Part shown: in pieces, positions 1,258 to 57,770 of the stretch
Layout of the letters: every line of letters begins with the position of its first letter
Position numbering within the stretch: the stretch's first letter is position 1
Origin: Octopus sinensis
Taxonomy: Eukaryota
Direction: 5' to 3'
Assembly (NCBI RefSeq): GCF_006345805.1
Contig: NC_043004.1
Span: 42,284,001 to 42,348,000 of the forward strand
Length of the DNA: 64,000 bases
Notes under the pieces: generated by a model
Databases searched by the model: none
Told to the model about the DNA's origin: nothing
The model's input: only the letters and a program-made list of their open reading frames with translations
Translations under genes and position numbers: made by a program

Positions 1258-1472
1258 ATCGCCATGTTGATTCGCTAGCCTCTGCACGCATTTTGTTTCT
1301 CTACTTGTTTCTTTCTGTGTTTCTTTTCTGTGTATCTTTCTGTTGAAGAGCGTAGGCTCGAAACGTAAAAGACTTGTTTTACTTATATTCCTGAGCGCCA
1401 TACTAATACAATTGTTTGTTTGTATTCCACCTGCCTTCGTCTTTTGTTTATTTTCATAAAGCTTCCCGTTAT
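1258..1472 (+). mobile_element. PLE pseudo-LTR-like repeat carrying a variant hammerhead motif (copy A)
   Basis: Homologous to 11463-11695(-), 31436-31635(-) and 57260-57450(+); sits inside the internal microsatellite of a SINE. Confidence 0.7.
1335..1372 (+). ncRNA. Minimal type I hammerhead-like motif with CUGUUGA core
   Basis: TCTTT-CTGTTGA-A-GAGC-GTAG-GCTC-GAAA-C-GTA-AAAGA: stem I TCTTT/AAAGA, stem II GAGC/GCTC, palindromic ACGT stem III. Confidence 0.6.
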
Positions 1473-11462: not shown

Positions 11463-11695
11463 AGAGAGAGTTTACGAAAAAAAAACAAAAGACGAAGACA
11501 GGTGGTGTACAAAACAAACAGGTGTATTAGTATAACGCTCAGGAATAGAAAAAAGTCTTTTACGTTTCGAGCCTACGCTCGTCTACAGAAAGGGACACTG
11601 TAAAAACAAGGAGAGAAACAAGAAGAGAGAAAAAGGAGAGAAAAAAACAAGGAGAAAAAATGTGTGTAGTGGCTAACGATCTATCATGGCGACTA
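11463..11695 (-). mobile_element. PLE pseudo-LTR-like repeat, copy B (variant hammerhead at 11556-11593, core CUGUAGA)
   Basis: Reverse complement ccctttCTGTAGAcgagcgtaggctcGAAAcgtaaaaga; flanked by TA-rich repeats. Confidence 0.7.
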
Positions 11696-11699
11696 TGTA

Positions 11700-12243
11700 T
11701 ATATGTATAGAGAGAGAATTGATAGAGGTTTATAAAGGTCACAGAGGGTACTGACTAGCACCGCTTTTGCTAAAGTTAAGAGTTAAAACAACTCAACAGG
11801 CACAAAAGCACTGCACTTTATGACTGATAAACAGAGGTAAGTCCCCAGAGTACATAGTCAGATCGACCACATTTCCGGGAGCACATCACACCTAACTTCT
11901 GGCCACCTAACTCCCCAGACTGCAACCTCTTGTTTATTATGTGCGGTGCGCAGCTGAGCGAGAGACCAACAAAACTCTTTGTAACACCAAAGATAAACAG
12001 AAGACAAATATGGCAGCACCCCACAACTAAATCAAGGAGGCCGTCCAGAAGAGTTGCAGGAGATTCCGAAGTCGTCTGGAGGAAGTGGTTAAAGCTAATG
12101 GTGATTTTATTGAATAAATTTTCCTGTTTAGTATTTCAAGATATTTTTCTGTAATTTTGGTAAATAGATGTGTTAAAATGAAATGTGAGCATTATTTTCA
12201 TTTTTGCATAATTTAGACGACACTTTATTCACCGCACCCTTTA
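11700..12243 (+). mobile_element. Tc1/mariner-superfamily internally deleted element with transposase C-terminus and right TIR
   Basis: PNFWPPNSPDCN..YYV...ERETNKT.CNTKD then CRRFRSRLEEVVKANGDFIE*; ends ttattcaccgcaccctttata before (TA)n. Confidence 0.75.
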
Positions 12244-40274: not shown

Positions 40275-41785
40275 ATCCTGATGTCTTATCTTGTCTTAAA
40301 AACCATCTAACAGATCTTGATTAAGAACAAGGATAACGTTACACCAATGAAGTACAGACAACTAACTCAACACTACAATAAACTACCACATATGTACGGT
40401 CTCCCTAAGATTAACAAGGATGGTATTCCATTAAGATCTATAGTGAGCTGTGGAGGTACAGCATGTTGTCCACCGACGCGCTTCCTTGTTGATACAATCA
40501 GTCCATTAGCAGGATAGTCAACATCGTGCGTGCAGAATTCCACCCACTTCGCAGAATTGATCAAGGATACCCCATTGAATCCAACAAGGTGTGTCTAGAT
40601 AAATCTGTTCACCAAAGTCGCAACTGGTGAAGCACTATCTGTGATTTAAGAAAAACTAGTGACAGACACCCATCAAAAAAAGAACGCACTAGTATATCAA
40701 TAACGAACTTGATGGAAAAGTTGACATTCTGTTTAGAAACTACCTACTTCAGTATGAACATTGATATATATTGACAAGAAGAGGGTTTAGCTATGGGCTC
40801 GACATTATCACCGATAATAGCCAATATATACATGGAATACTTTGAGAATTTGTCTTTAGGATCAACACTACTAAAACCAATCCTATGACTGCGATATGCT
40901 GATGGCACCTATACCCACCAGGAAGATGTCCAAGTGCTGTTAGATCATGTGAACTCAATACAGCCATCCATACAGTTCACAATGGAAAAGGAAAAAGACA
41001 ATCAGCAAGCATTCCTGGACATATTAATAGCACGCACCAAGAATGGATTCAGGACATCCGTATACTGCAAGCCGATCTTCACTGGGCGATACCTTAACTT
41101 TAATTCCCACCATCCATATAGTGTAAAGAGAGGGATTGCTCAGTGCCTAAAACATCGAGCAATGAATATAAGTAGCGATCGTGATACCCACCACAAAGAA
41201 ATGATGAAGCTCAGTAACAAGCTTTGTTGTTTGTTCCTTCTCGAGCCATGCCTGGCTCATTAGAGTCGGTTTCCTGGTTTCTTGGCGTATAGGTTCCCCA
41301 CCTGGATGGGACGCCGGTCCATCGCAGGTGAGCTGCAAGATGCAGGAGGAAAGAGTGAGAGAAAGTTGTGGCGAAAGAATCAGCAGAAGTTTTGCCATTA
41401 CCTTCTGCCGGAGCTGCCTGGAGCTTAGGTGTTTCGCTCATAAACACACACATCGCCCGGTCTGAGATTCGAACCCGCGATCCCTCGACCGTGAGTCCGC
41501 AGCTCTAACCACTAGGCCATGTGCCTCCACAGTAACAATCTATTAAGCAACAACTAACCCGAAAGTATACTATCCACTCCAATTATGAAGAAAAGAATGG
41601 ATGAAATCCGCAATCTGTCTACCCTATGTGAAAGGCCTCTCCGAAAAGATGCAAAAGATATGCGGGTCATAAGACATCAGGACAGTATTCAAGAGTAATA
41701 CTACACTTCGCAAATATTTCTTTCGAGAAAAACGCCAATAGAAGAGACTATGAGAAAAGAACTGCATGTATTCCATTCCAGCCGG
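40275..41785 (+). pseudogene. Penelope-like element reverse transcriptase pseudogene to the start of GIY-YIG
   Basis: PHMYGLPKINKDGIPLRSIVS; GLAMGSTLSPIIANIYMEYFE; LRYADGT; IQFTMEKEKDNQQAFLDILI; VYCKPIFTGRYLNFNSHHP; ICLPYVKGLSEK; interrupted by a SINE. Confidence 0.92.
41221..41530 (-). mobile_element. SINE family 2, full length, nested in the PLE
   Basis: Head gtggaggcacatggcctagtggttagag, B box ggttcgaatctc, V/Meta-like cctgcgatggaccggcgtcccatccagg; TSD agtaacaa at 41213-41220 and 41531-41538. Confidence 0.92.
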
Positions 41786-45632: not shown

Positions 45633-45639
45633 ATATGGA

Positions 45640-46435
45640 TTTCCTGGTGCAGCCTGGGACGTTACAACTGTCTTGTCCAGGCTAATACTGAGTCCAATAT
45701 CTTTCAGGCAGCAGAGAGCAACTGATTTCTTCCGGCCTCTTCAGTCTCGTGTCTGCTCCGTGCATGACATCACGAGGGAAACAAAAAGTGTTGTGTATCT
45801 TTACTCATGTGGGACATGGACCATTTACAAATGTCATGTAAATGTCCTTGAAGGCTTTCATCAGAGATATCTGAGACAAATTCTGAATGTTGTCTGGACC
45901 TTAAAAACTCCAGACACACAGGTCCTGAAGAAAGCTGTTATCTTGACTACTGAGGCGATGGTGCACAATCACTGGTTACGTTGGACTGGAAACCTTCTTA
46001 GAATGACGGATAGCTGGATCCCTAAACAGCTGCTATATGGGGAACTTGCTACTGGAAAGAGACCTCGGAAGAAACCAAGGCTGCGATTTAAGGACTCAGT
46101 CTAATTAAAGTCTTGTGATATGCAAGTAACTGACTGGGAGAGCAATACCTATCATCGCCACAGATGGAGGAAGTAGGTTAAGGAAAGGATTAAAAGCACA
46201 TATTCTGCATGAAGAATTTAAGCGTGCCGTTCCAAAGCGCAGTTAGTGTAGTGAATGGGAAAAGCTTGGTTTGCAATGTTTTCAGCCGTGTATGCTTGTC
46301 AAGAGCAAAACTCATTAACCACCAACGGAGCCGCAAATGCAAAATATAAGTTAGTCCCAGAGCGCACAATGTTCCTAAACTTGAGCAATGGTCTTTGTCG
46401 GTCACGGGTGGACGGCCATCATCATGATCATCATC
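45640..46435 (+). pseudogene. RTE-clade LINE 3' fragment
   Basis: LYSCGTWTIY...LEGFHQRYLRQILNVVW...LRWTGNLLRMTDSWIPKQLLYGELATGKRPRKKPRLRFKD; ends in a (CAT)n tail. Confidence 0.9.
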
Positions 46436-46907
46436 TATATTTGTGTGTGTGTGTAAATGTATGTATCAATATACTAACATATAATCCTACATTCATAGGC
46501 ATTATTATACAGTTTATACTGCTCCTCAGCTCCTTCATTATAAATCAATTATATTATAATGAATCAGGCTGTGTTATTAAGGCCACGTCGTTTAATTAGA
46601 CTGGTTTCAAATACCTATATCCGAAAATTTTCACCAAAAATTTTAGAAAAATTTTCCCCAAAAATTTTTCAAAACCTTTCCCCTAAAAATTTTTTCGAAC
46701 GGTCTCCCCTAAAATTTTACCAAAAAATTTTTCGAAAATTTTCACCGAAAATTTTACCCGAAAAGTTTCCGAAAATTTTCCCGAAAATTTTTCGAAAATT
46801 TTCCCCAAGCTAAAAATAGATGTTATGGCTAAAAAGAGATTTTTTGTGGGCTGCTGCTGCTTTCTGAGTATATATAGAGTGAATTCTGGTTTACTACTAC
46901 AGTGAAG

Positions 46908-47020
46908 ATGCCTCACCAGCCACGATACACCAGATTCTGCATTACACTTAACAACTATGACGATATCGACGTTTATAGACTTCAGCATATGGAGCAATAT
47001 CCGTTATATGGGTTTTCGAA
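46908..47020 (+). pseudogene. CRESS-DNA/circovirus-like Rep N-terminal fragment, cassette 1
   Basis: MPHQPRYTRFCITLNNYDDIDVYRLQHMEQ then a 1-nt frameshift; tatatataga about 35 nt upstream of the ATG. Confidence 0.6.
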
Positions 47021-47782
47021 AATTATCACAAAAAATTTTTCAAAAATTTTCACCGAAAATTTTCCCCAAAAATTTTTCGAAAATTTTTTCCGAGCTGAAC
47101 ATAGATGTTATGGCTAAAAATAGATTTTTAGGTGGCTGCTGCTGCTTTCGCCGAAAATTTTCACCAAAAATTTTTCGAAAATTCTCACCGAAAATTTTAC
47201 CCAAAAATTTTAGAAAATTTTCACCTAAAATTTTACCCAAAAGTTTTTTCGAAAATTTTACCCAAAAATTTTTCGAAAATTTTCATCGAAAATTTTACCC
47301 AAAAATTTTTCGAAAATTTTCTCCGAATATATTACCCAAAAATTTTTTTAAAATTTTTACCTAAAATTTTACCCAAAAGTTTTTCTAAAATTTTCACCTA
47401 AAATTTTACCCAAAAATTTTTCGAAAATTTTCACCTAAAATTTTACCCAAAAATTTTTTCGAAAATTTTCATCGAAAATTTTCTCCGAATATATTACCCC
47501 AAAATTTTTTTTAAATTTTCACCTAAAATTTTACCCAAAAATTTTTCGAAAATTTTCACCTAAAATTTTACCTAAAAATTTTTCGAAAATTTTACCTAAA
47601 AATTTTTCGATAATTTTACCCAAAAATTTTCACCAACAATTTTTGGAAAATTTTCACCGAAAATTTTACCCAAAAATTTTTCGGAAATTTTCACCGAAAA
47701 TTTTCACCAAAAATTTACCCAAAAATTTTTCGAACATTTTCACCGGAAACTTTACCCAACAATTTTTGGAAAATTTTATCCA

Positions 47783-47900
47783 AAATCACAAAGTATGGAA
47801 GGCCAGCGGTGCCCAAATCCCAAAGTATGGAAAGCCAGTGGTGCCAAAATCACAAAGTATGGTACGCCAGCGGTGCCAATATCACAAAGTATGGAAAGCC
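47783..47900. repeat. 32-bp minisatellite, about 3.7 units (aaatcacaaagtatggaaagccagcggtgcca)
   Basis: Units start at 47783, 47815, 47847 and 47879. Confidence 0.92.
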
Positions 47901-48393
47901 ATACTTTTCGAAACTTTTCACGTAAAATTTTACCCAAAAGTTTTCACCAACAATTTTTGGAAATTTTTGTCGAAAATTTTACCCAAACATTTTTCGGAAA
48001 TTTTCACCGAGAATTTTAACCAAAAATTTTACCCAAAAATTTTTCGAATATTTTGACCGAAAATTTTACCCAAAGATTACGCGAAAATTTTAACCAAAAA
48101 TTTTGACCAACAATTTTCGAAAATATTTCGAAAATTTCACCGAAAATCTTCCCCAAAAGTTTTTGAAAAATTTTCACCGAAAATTTTAACCAAAAATTTT
48201 TCGAAAATTTTCACTGAAAATTTTACCCAAAAATTTTTCCTAAATTTTTCCCGAAAATTTTATCCAAAAATTTTTAGAAAATTTTCCGCGAGCTAAAAAT
48301 AGATGTTATGGCTAAAAATAGACTTATAGTTGGCTGCTGCTGCTGTTTTCTGTGTATACATAGAGTTAATTCTGGATAAATACTACAGTCAAG

Positions 48394-56722: not shown

Positions 56723-57259
56723 CTCAGATATACACACATGCGCACACACATGGACAGATACATAGAACCATTATGCATTTGTACACGTCTATATGTACCG
56801 TACTGCATATATGAACGCTATGTAACGCATTCGGTTTCATTAAAAGTCGAAAATATATAATAAACGGTACATACATTTTTGTTAAGTTGAGAGATATAGT
56901 TGTAGATTCACAACGTCTGTGTTAGTCATGAATCGTTATTGTCGCAATAGTTTTCATTTGCTTATAGATTACCCTGCTATAAAATGTAGCACAAACGCTT
57001 AGTTCTGTTTCTTGTGGGAGTAATGAAGCGTTAGCGAAGGAATATGATTAGGAAATTTCTGTTCTTTCGTCACCTTTCAACTGATATTATGCCTTGTACT
57101 TTTCTAACCTTTTATCCTCTAAATCAGTGGTTCTTAACCTTTTATGTAGTTGTTATGAGTAGCGCTCACCTAAAATGCCAGTCAGTTATCACAACTAAAG
57201 ATGGAAGATGGTTATAAAATTTACTCAAAACGTTGATTGTATAAGCTTCTCCGGCACTA

Positions 57260-57450
57260 GTCGCCATGATATATCGTTAGCCACTACACACATATTTTCT
57301 CTACTTGTTTTTTCTGTGTCCTTTTCTGTAGAAGAGCGTAGGCTCGAAACGTAAAATACTTTTCTATTCCTGAGCGTTATACTAATACATCTGTTTGTTT
57401 TGTACACCACCTGTCTTCGTCTTTTGTTTTTTTCGTAAATTATCCCTACA
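57260..57450 (+). mobile_element. PLE pseudo-LTR-like repeat, copy D (variant hammerhead at 57321-57358, core CUGUAGA)
   Basis: cttttCTGTAGAagagcgtaggctcGAAAcgtaaaat; homologous to 1258-1472. Confidence 0.7.
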
Positions 57451-57519: not shown

Positions 57520-57770
57520 ATATTAGTCGAATATATGGACCCAGTACTTGTTTTTTAAAAGGCTGATACTTATTCTATCGGTCTTTCTCTGAACCACTAA
57601 GTCACGGGGATGTAAACACAACGACACCGGTTCTCAAGCGGCAGTGGTGGAACAAACAGACACACCCATATATTCATCTCTGAGACAGGCTTCTTTCAGT
57701 TTCCGTCTACCAGATCCACCCGTGAGGCTTTGGTTGGTTCGAGTCTATAGTAGAAGCCTCTTGCCCAGGA
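57520..57770 (-). mobile_element. SINE family 1, diverged fragment
   Basis: tacttattctatcggtcttt...taaacacaacgacaccggtt...ttctttcagtttccgtctacc. Confidence 0.8.

Follow-up and report, generated by a model that had tools for sequence, protein, structure and literature searches.

We analysed a 64,000-nucleotide window of Octopus sinensis DNA (contig NC_043004.1, positions 42,284,001 to 42,348,000) and found four dispersed copies of a short repeat that carries a minimal type I hammerhead motif in which the normally near-invariant A6 of the catalytic core is U. The repeat is abundant in the genome, and U6 stands in nearly every sampled copy with the rest of the core intact. Judged by its sequence, the U6 motif is apparently a new core variant within the minimal hammerheads known from Penelope-like elements (PLEs), with a natural A6C core already known, and the repeat that carries it is likely a non-autonomous PLE derivative.

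The four hammerheads each form the centre of a copy of one longer repeat of ~190–250 nt and therefore do not represent four independent origins of U6. Copy 1 (1260..1467, + strand) is inserted in the central (CA)n(TA)n tract of another, SINE-like repeat (985–1658), which it splits into halves at 985–1259 and 1470–1658 that are contiguous in other copies, for example 26654–26202. Copy 2 (11464..11695, − strand) has a longer pyrimidine tract and TA-rich tracts on its flanks, copy 3 (31440..31634, − strand) has (TA)n at its end, and copy 4 (57258..57446, + strand), which has (CA)n(TA)n at its end and is followed by another copy of the SINE-like repeat (57523–57770), served as the reference for the family-wide variant table described below. 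Each copy opens with CGCCATG, which TAGT precedes in copies 2 and 4, and then passes through a pyrimidine tract, the hammerhead and a 3′ segment before stopping at a (TA)n or (CA)n tract. Pairwise identity of the four copies is 85–94% (93.7% for copies 2 and 4, 88.9% for copies 1 and 3), corresponding to a divergence of 6–15%. All four copies have a common 5′ end, a distance of 86–93 nt from the cut site to a conserved 3′ motif, and DNA that runs through the cut site without a break, which implies templates that were uncut or re-joined. A profile of the four copies found no fifth copy in the 64-kb window, which is repeat-dense animal DNA with a GC content of 26–41% and SINE-like repeats that seem similar to octopus ones. 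The repeat is ORF-less and no ORF lies beside any of its copies in the window, where we also met no tandem arrays with a hammerhead in each unit, all four copies being solo and devoid of a dimer partner in cis. Two other readings of the repeat were set aside: that of an antisense tRNA-derived SINE is unsupported (ARAGORN, 0 genes), and a proposed match of the 5′ end, GTCGCCAT, to the C-R-H end of a Hydra-clade ORF was based on 7–8 bases compared by eye.

An earlier note on this DNA had described four 38-nt hammerheads, and its coordinates, strands, one-base bulge, GAAA, palindromic ACGU and A17 agree with our reading, but the details of stems and bulge are not uniform among the copies. The motif of copy 1 (1335..1372, + strand) has a 5-bp stem I, C3 at 1340, U6 at 1343, U7 and A17 at 1367, and that of copy 2 (11556..11593, − strand) has a 4-bp stem I, C3 at 11588, U6 at 11585, A7, a C bulge and A17 at 11561. 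The motif of copy 3 (31535..31572, − strand) has C3 at 31567, U6 at 31564, C7, A17 at 31540 and one stem II mismatch (GAGA/GCUC; A-G). In copy 4 (57321..57358, + strand), C3 lies at 57326, U6 at 57329, A7 at 57330 and A17 at 57353, and a U-U mismatch leaves stem I with 3 bp, a minority state at a position where the family majority is C-G at 84–99% of depth. The outer stem I position is unpaired in copies 2 and 4, an inner stem pair is clearly broken in two of the four copies, and the bulged base between positions 9 and 10.1 is A, C, A and A in copies 1–4. The cores read CUGUUGA, CUGUAGA, CUGUCGA and CUGUAGA, exactly as first reported, and the presence of U6 in all four departs from the canonical C3U4G5A6N7G8A9 and places the motif as a core variant. 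The remaining features of the hammerhead are in place: G12A13A14, A15.1-U16.1 and a base other than G at position 17, together with the G10.1-C11.1 pair and a palindromic ACGU at 15.2–16.2 with no loop III in every copy.

A descriptor with positions 6 and 7 left free gave four matches in the window, all with U6, compared with a mean of 0.04 over 100 dinucleotide shuffles, and we conclude that the motif is not a product of chance; the full set of minimal-hammerhead hallmarks occurred in 0 of the 100 shuffles. Compensatory changes were seen in none of the nine stem pairs across the four copies (89% of cells paired), a comparison of little power with stems that are nearly invariant. The expectation that standard motif searches would miss the U6 motif is borne out by the published descriptors, which require CUGA (PMC8557442, PMC4209133). 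Rfam covariance models gave no hammerhead match to copy 4 at E≤10 and none among the best 150 of 298 matches to the window, and the window matches listed were mostly microsatellite or miRNA noise, none reaching the gathering score. The Rfam miss is not due to U6, since Rfam also misses a minimal hammerhead with a canonical A6 core (CUGAUGA) at 39596..39631 (− strand) in the same window, which belongs to a different repeat and has one decayed base (A15.1 to C). This control has no sequence likeness to the U6 family and occurs as a single copy in the window, and its presence shows that A6 and U6 families coexist there.

We next surveyed variation across the family by aligning contigs from 4 of 20 public runs (organism labels A, C, D and A; 21365, 11927, 7650 and 4069 aligned contigs) to copy 4 at 80% likeness, a threshold that is reference-biased and that a more distant A6 sister family would escape. 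The resulting variant table comprises the best 40 variant rows, in which depth does not equal copy number, and within this table, which carries no haplotypes, no compensatory stem change is visible. Run X15 is possibly the window's own sample, and run X1, which we guess to be RNA, served solely as a variant table. Position 7 is A in 53–56%, C in 10–14%, G in 8–13% and U in 20–27% of depth across the four runs and is the only A>G place in each, confirming the earlier proposal that this position is free. Position 17 is A in ~77% of depth and U in 22–24%, such that the GUA site described previously is the majority triplet but not the sole form, GUU accounting for the rest. Position 6 is absent among the best 40 variant rows of all four runs. 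Counts per kind of change allowed us to locate 30 of 32 variants in X1, 32 of 37 in X16, 32 of 36 in X17 and 40 of 66 in X15. In X1, U6A lies below 1%, as both counted T>A places are located elsewhere, and a single T>C and a single G>T stay unlocated. U6C and U6G lie below 1% in X16, where one T>A place is unlocated, as are two in X15 and one in X17. The absence of position 6 from these rows in four runs, with U6A below 1% in X1, upholds the view that the source elements themselves carried U6.

In run X1, the located variants of the 36-nt hammerhead are five CpG transitions (1–11% of depth), the reference's own mismatch, three position-7 changes and A17U. Outside CpG sites, located variation is confined to places that hammerhead chemistry allows, and rough post-hoc odds for all four non-CpG changes falling on tolerated sites are ~0.001. 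No located change falls at C3, U4, G5, G8, A9, A13, A14, A15.1 or U16.1; on the assumption of a single origin of U6, position 7 later acquired three more states while these nine core sites remained without located change. Common descent alone would leave most positions invariant. The CpG of the ACGU palindrome is changed in 3–11% of depth, compared with 1–4% at the other two CpG stem or core sites; the rate of change at this CpG (57350–57351), similar for its two bases, is 2–3 times that of 57337 and 57346, and the excess could conceal a subfamily with an AUAU palindrome. Aligned depth is highest over the core (about 7.2M versus about 2M in the 3′ flank in X15), a peak that may come partly from poor alignment of the T-rich flanks, and loose contig ends join other flanks to the core. 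In all four runs (TA)n comes after the 3′ end in loose ends (37–98 contigs each), and none of the loose ends listed falls at the cut site.

Comparison with known mobile elements suggests that the repeat matches PLE pseudo-LTRs in its fold and in the spacing of ~90 nt between cut site and 3′ end, although no ORF-linked copy is among those seen. The hallmarks of PLE minimal hammerheads described by Cervera & de la Pena (2014, PMC4209133) are a bulge between positions 9 and 10.1, G10.1-C11.1, a palindromic 15.2–16.2 and a U-rich leader, and all of these are present in the U6 repeat. The likeness extends to the loopless ACGU helix III (PMC4209133; Lunse et al. 2017 via the review PMC6765202), a short helix I and mostly solo dispersed copies (PMC4209133). 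The U6 repeat differs from this group at position 6, which is A in 44 of 44 rows of Fig. S3, where the descriptor demanded A6, and in a helix II of only 4 bp; the core variant reported for the group is U3-A8 (PMC4209133).

A second parallel is the anole Poseidon element PAc, in which reverse transcription starts 111–118 nt into the ORF and the cut site lies at +26 (Frangieh et al. 2024, PMC11167929). By our own subtraction the distance from cut site to reverse transcription start is 85–92 nt in PAc, compared with 86–93 nt from cut site to 3′ motif in the U6 repeat, and in both elements the targets are AT-rich and the inserts derive from RNA that was uncut. Cutting by the PAc hammerhead requires its protein, no RNA ends are reported at its cut site, and mutants with an inactive ribozyme insert equally well in vitro (PMC11167929). 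Unlike the U6 repeat, which lacks both an ORF and an AUG at stem II, PAc is autonomous and has its start codon there (PMC11167929).

Hydra-clade PLEs, including Hydra-1_Obim, likewise insert in (TA)n, as the U6 repeat does, and among them are several whose helix II is 4 bp long and capped by a tetraloop; position 17 is often A or U (Craig et al. 2021, PMC8557442). In contrast to the U6 repeat, they have a longer helix III (3–4 bp in File S2) and A6 in 34 of 34 File S2 rows, from a search that required CUGA; the Hydra-1_Obim hammerhead is unlike the U6 motif in sequence, and a 12-mer of the U6 motif was not found in the supplement of that study (PMC8557442). The (TA)n targets would suit the Hydra or Naiad clade and the loopless helix III the fish- and fluke-type minimal form. 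Helper elements are plausible given the abundance of PLEs in O. vulgaris, where they form 6.83% of the assembly in 190 families, and the supplement of that repeat study did not contain the U6 motif (PMC13282606). Non-LTR retrozymes are also short non-coding repeats with a type I hammerhead, a proposed origin from PLE pseudo-LTRs and common monomers, but they are defined by tandem arrays, whereas the four U6 copies are solo with a minimal U6 core (PMC7229834; bioRxiv 10.64898/2026.07.22.740005), and the retrozymes of PMC7229834 additionally have canonical hammerheads and circular RNAs. PLE minimal hammerheads and their non-autonomous derivatives are thus an already known kind of element (PMC6765202, PMC6155905, PMC7229834; bioRxiv 10.64898/2026.07.22.740005).

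What sets the octopus repeat apart is position 6. In known hammerheads A6 is stacked on G5, and G8 and G12 are catalytic, functionally important bases (PMC11300833), and in a type III hammerhead subjected to deep mutational scanning all single mutants of the CUGA region were low in activity (PMC9901934). The Bcep176 A6C hammerhead also has a natural pyrimidine at position 6 in an otherwise intact core (PMC3088659, PMC7151607). One or two hydrogen bonds are expected to be broken in it and its activity is low but detectable (Perreault 2011, PMC3088659), and A6C cuts slowly in Mg2+ and well in Mn2+, in one construct >10,000-fold better in Mn2+ (Naghdi 2020, PMC7151607). Bcep176 is a single phage example with C, whereas the octopus motif has U, and the animal repeat that holds it is high-copy, with a minimal fold of the dimer type (PMC3088659, PMC7151607). 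Our literature searches, at the level of listings and abstracts, yielded no natural A6U hammerhead; the largest survey of the class (Lunse et al. 2017), covered through a review only, could contain one.

We then searched for U6 hammerheads in other sequence collections. The exact U6 family motif gave 0 matches in metagenome and prokaryote collections, and a relaxed U6 pattern returned 52 metagenome loci, 23 of them with a stem I of at least 4 bp. Loci without stem I were set aside as chance matches, as were L019, L041 and L049, which lie in ORF-dense DNA. About 19 of these loci share one style, that of an AT-rich fold-back or short repeat; they collapse to ~12 independent sites and, by their look, we take them to be probably insect host DNA. 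Unselected neighbouring cores in this unrelated repeat family have A6 in 13 cases (one doubtful) and U6 in one, so U6 is mostly sporadic there, and most of the remaining metagenome loci are U6 copies inside A6-dominated families that were selected by the pattern itself and are therefore no evidence of function. One U6 (CUGUAGA) form of a fold-back repeat in this otherwise A6 family occurs at three sites with different flanks, namely L026 (position 113), L027 (positions 1328 and 1501, in both arms; the same site as L030) and L033 (position 53), with copies 92–99% alike. This mobile form shows that U6 does not bar spreading, and function is not implied by it. A spacing of 90–95 nt, to be set against the 86–93 nt from cut site to 3′ motif in the octopus repeat, was observed in 10 of 20 hammerheads examined in the same unrelated repeat family, and three protein queries from the window found no PLE similarity in 21 of these metagenome loci. 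Among individual loci, L022 carries a single strict minimal hammerhead (1501–1529, − strand) with the core CUGUGGA and a 6-bp stem I, and L020 an inverted pair (1446, − strand; 1501, + strand) with A6 in one arm and U6 in the other. Viral contigs gave two U6 matches and no A6 matches, on contigs with the same lengths and ranges as the stem-less L047 and L039.

The explanation that we favour, and to which we give an even chance, is that a non-autonomous PLE derivative carries the U6 hammerhead as an attenuated ribozyme, one that would be slow to cut and would need either dimer formation or protein assistance to do so. From the 5′ end shared by all four copies, the RNA start would lie ~90–130 nt upstream of the cut site. 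On the model of anole Poseidon, a reverse transcriptase (RT)/endonuclease borrowed from a PLE would nick a (TA)n tract and start reverse transcription ~90 nt downstream of the cut site, and the run-through seen in the DNA means that the template copied was uncut or re-joined. U6 may lower the cutting rate through weaker stacking or hydrogen bonding at position 6, and in an isolated monomer it may let U4-G5-U6 pair with A15.1-C15.2-G16.2. Slower cutting would leave more full-length template for copying and, after U6 arose, residual cutting or active-site geometry would still have been selected on master copies. In folds of isolated 38-mers, the predicted probability of the U6-A15.1 pair is 0.98, 0.56, 0.11 and 0.79 for copies 1–4 and 0 with A at position 6, and U6 gives the predicted three-pair zipper in three of the four. 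In folds of the whole element, the predicted probability is about 0 for stem I, 0–0.31 for G10.1-C11.1 and 0–0.05 for U6-A15.1, and neither the zipper nor stem I is predicted in that context. We also entertain, tentatively, the possibility that U6, a core change damaging to laboratory hammerheads, is a selected tuning in a high-copy retroelement family, with a ribozyme that only the helper RT or dimerisation would activate, U6 zipping the monomer shut and every other catalytic constraint kept. In that case CUGUNGA cores would form a class of conditional ribozymes missed by CUGANGA descriptors, and the second mobile U6 form (L026, L027, L033) would mean that this class arose more than once.

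We keep both options of the earlier note, a functional natural core variant or a fold retained for another role, and add a founder effect on a dead ribozyme. In one alternative, the motif may have no useful cutting rate and persist because its fold serves as a handle, for instance one that the helper RT recognises or that sets an internal RT start, possibly as a U6-A15.1 rod. Consistent with a handle, the templates of all four copies were intact at the cut site, PAc insertion is independent of cutting and no RNA ends are reported at its cut site (PMC11167929), CUGA mutants are low in activity (PMC9901934) and the zipper created by U6 is predicted in three of four 38-mers. In a rod, however, position 7 would face A14 and favour U, yet A is commonest (53–56%) and all four bases occur; no variation was located at C3 or U16.1, although both would be unpaired; G is avoided at position 17, as it is in hammerheads that cut; and the rod is not predicted in the whole element, and we regard this explanation as rather doubtful. 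Variation at positions 7 and 17 also bears on a founder effect, in which A6U abolished or impaired ribozyme activity in a single master copy that was nevertheless amplified, the hammerhead being a passenger, with later variation due to drift. Drift predicts neither position 7 as the four-base site nor A17U as the other located non-CpG core variant, and the core is the best-covered part of the element, which leaves a founder effect unlikely in our view even though a U6 form has spread to at least three distinct sites (L026, L027=L030, L033) in an unrelated family where A6 is the rule, Naiads thrive without canonical hammerheads (Craig et al., PMC8557442) and the window copies are 6–15% diverged, two of the four with a clearly broken inner stem pair.

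The hammerhead-type constraint at every other core position could also reflect a fully competent natural core, compensated by context such as A/U17, the bulge, a dimer partner strand, protein or Mn2+, and A6C indeed barely affects cutting in Mn2+ (PMC7151607). We consider full competence very improbable: a template that was cut efficiently would be truncated, yet the site is spanned in all four copies, none of the loose ends listed falls there, no compensating change was identified, and even canonical minimal hammerheads are already slow as dimers (PMC4209133).

Whether or not the attenuated-ribozyme reading is correct, the family bears on the question of why PLEs carry hammerheads: minimal ones cut poorly (PMC4209133), and the sole PLE tried in vitro inserts without cutting (PMC11167929). 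The U6 repeat is a natural experiment in which a family amplified widely with a damaged-looking core and retained the pattern of a free position 7 and a position 17 that is not G. If the U6 hammerhead cuts, the few natural core variants known would gain A6U, and counts of hammerheads based on CUGA descriptors would be too low; if it does not cut, the family would be a clear instance of a ribozyme fold retained in another role.

The window also contains broken PLE-type ORF pieces at 39880..41780, comprising an RT on the + strand (~40330–41780) and an inverted endonuclease C-terminus on the − strand (~39880–40200), whose motifs probably place them with Penelope/Poseidon. Of 128 candidates compared with the RT piece, 109 were relatives at E≤0.001, and all but two of these carry PF00078 and/or PF26215. 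This element is the sort of helper that is conceivable for the U6 repeat, with no link between the two. The inverted endonuclease piece lies on the 5′ side of the broken ORF, an arrangement described for PLE insertions, and a SINE-like insert at ~41220–41535 interrupts the ORF. A hammerhead-like string at ~40140–40175 (− strand) was rejected as coding sequence of the endonuclease (KGETCR). The A6 control hammerhead at 39596–39631 lies just downstream of the inverted endonuclease fragment, and its repeat has a tRNA-like head (~39770–39840, by eye) and an (AAT)n(AAG)n tract.

Other features of the window include a fragmented DDE transposase at 17920–19194 (− strand; PF13843, E 2e-33), presumably piggyBac-like, and a stretch at ~11800–12100 (+ strand) that by eye we assume to resemble a Tc1/mariner transposase C-terminus. 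A region at 45634–46104 (+ strand), for which Pfam gave no significant match, looks to us like a LINE RT C-terminal fragment, and a long AT-rich tandem-like tract at ~46900–48050 appears as repetitive open frames. Within 26200–28310, near-identical stretches pair ~26390–26650 with ~27250–27515 and ~26990–27250 with ~27850–28100, an arrangement that suggests a local duplication.
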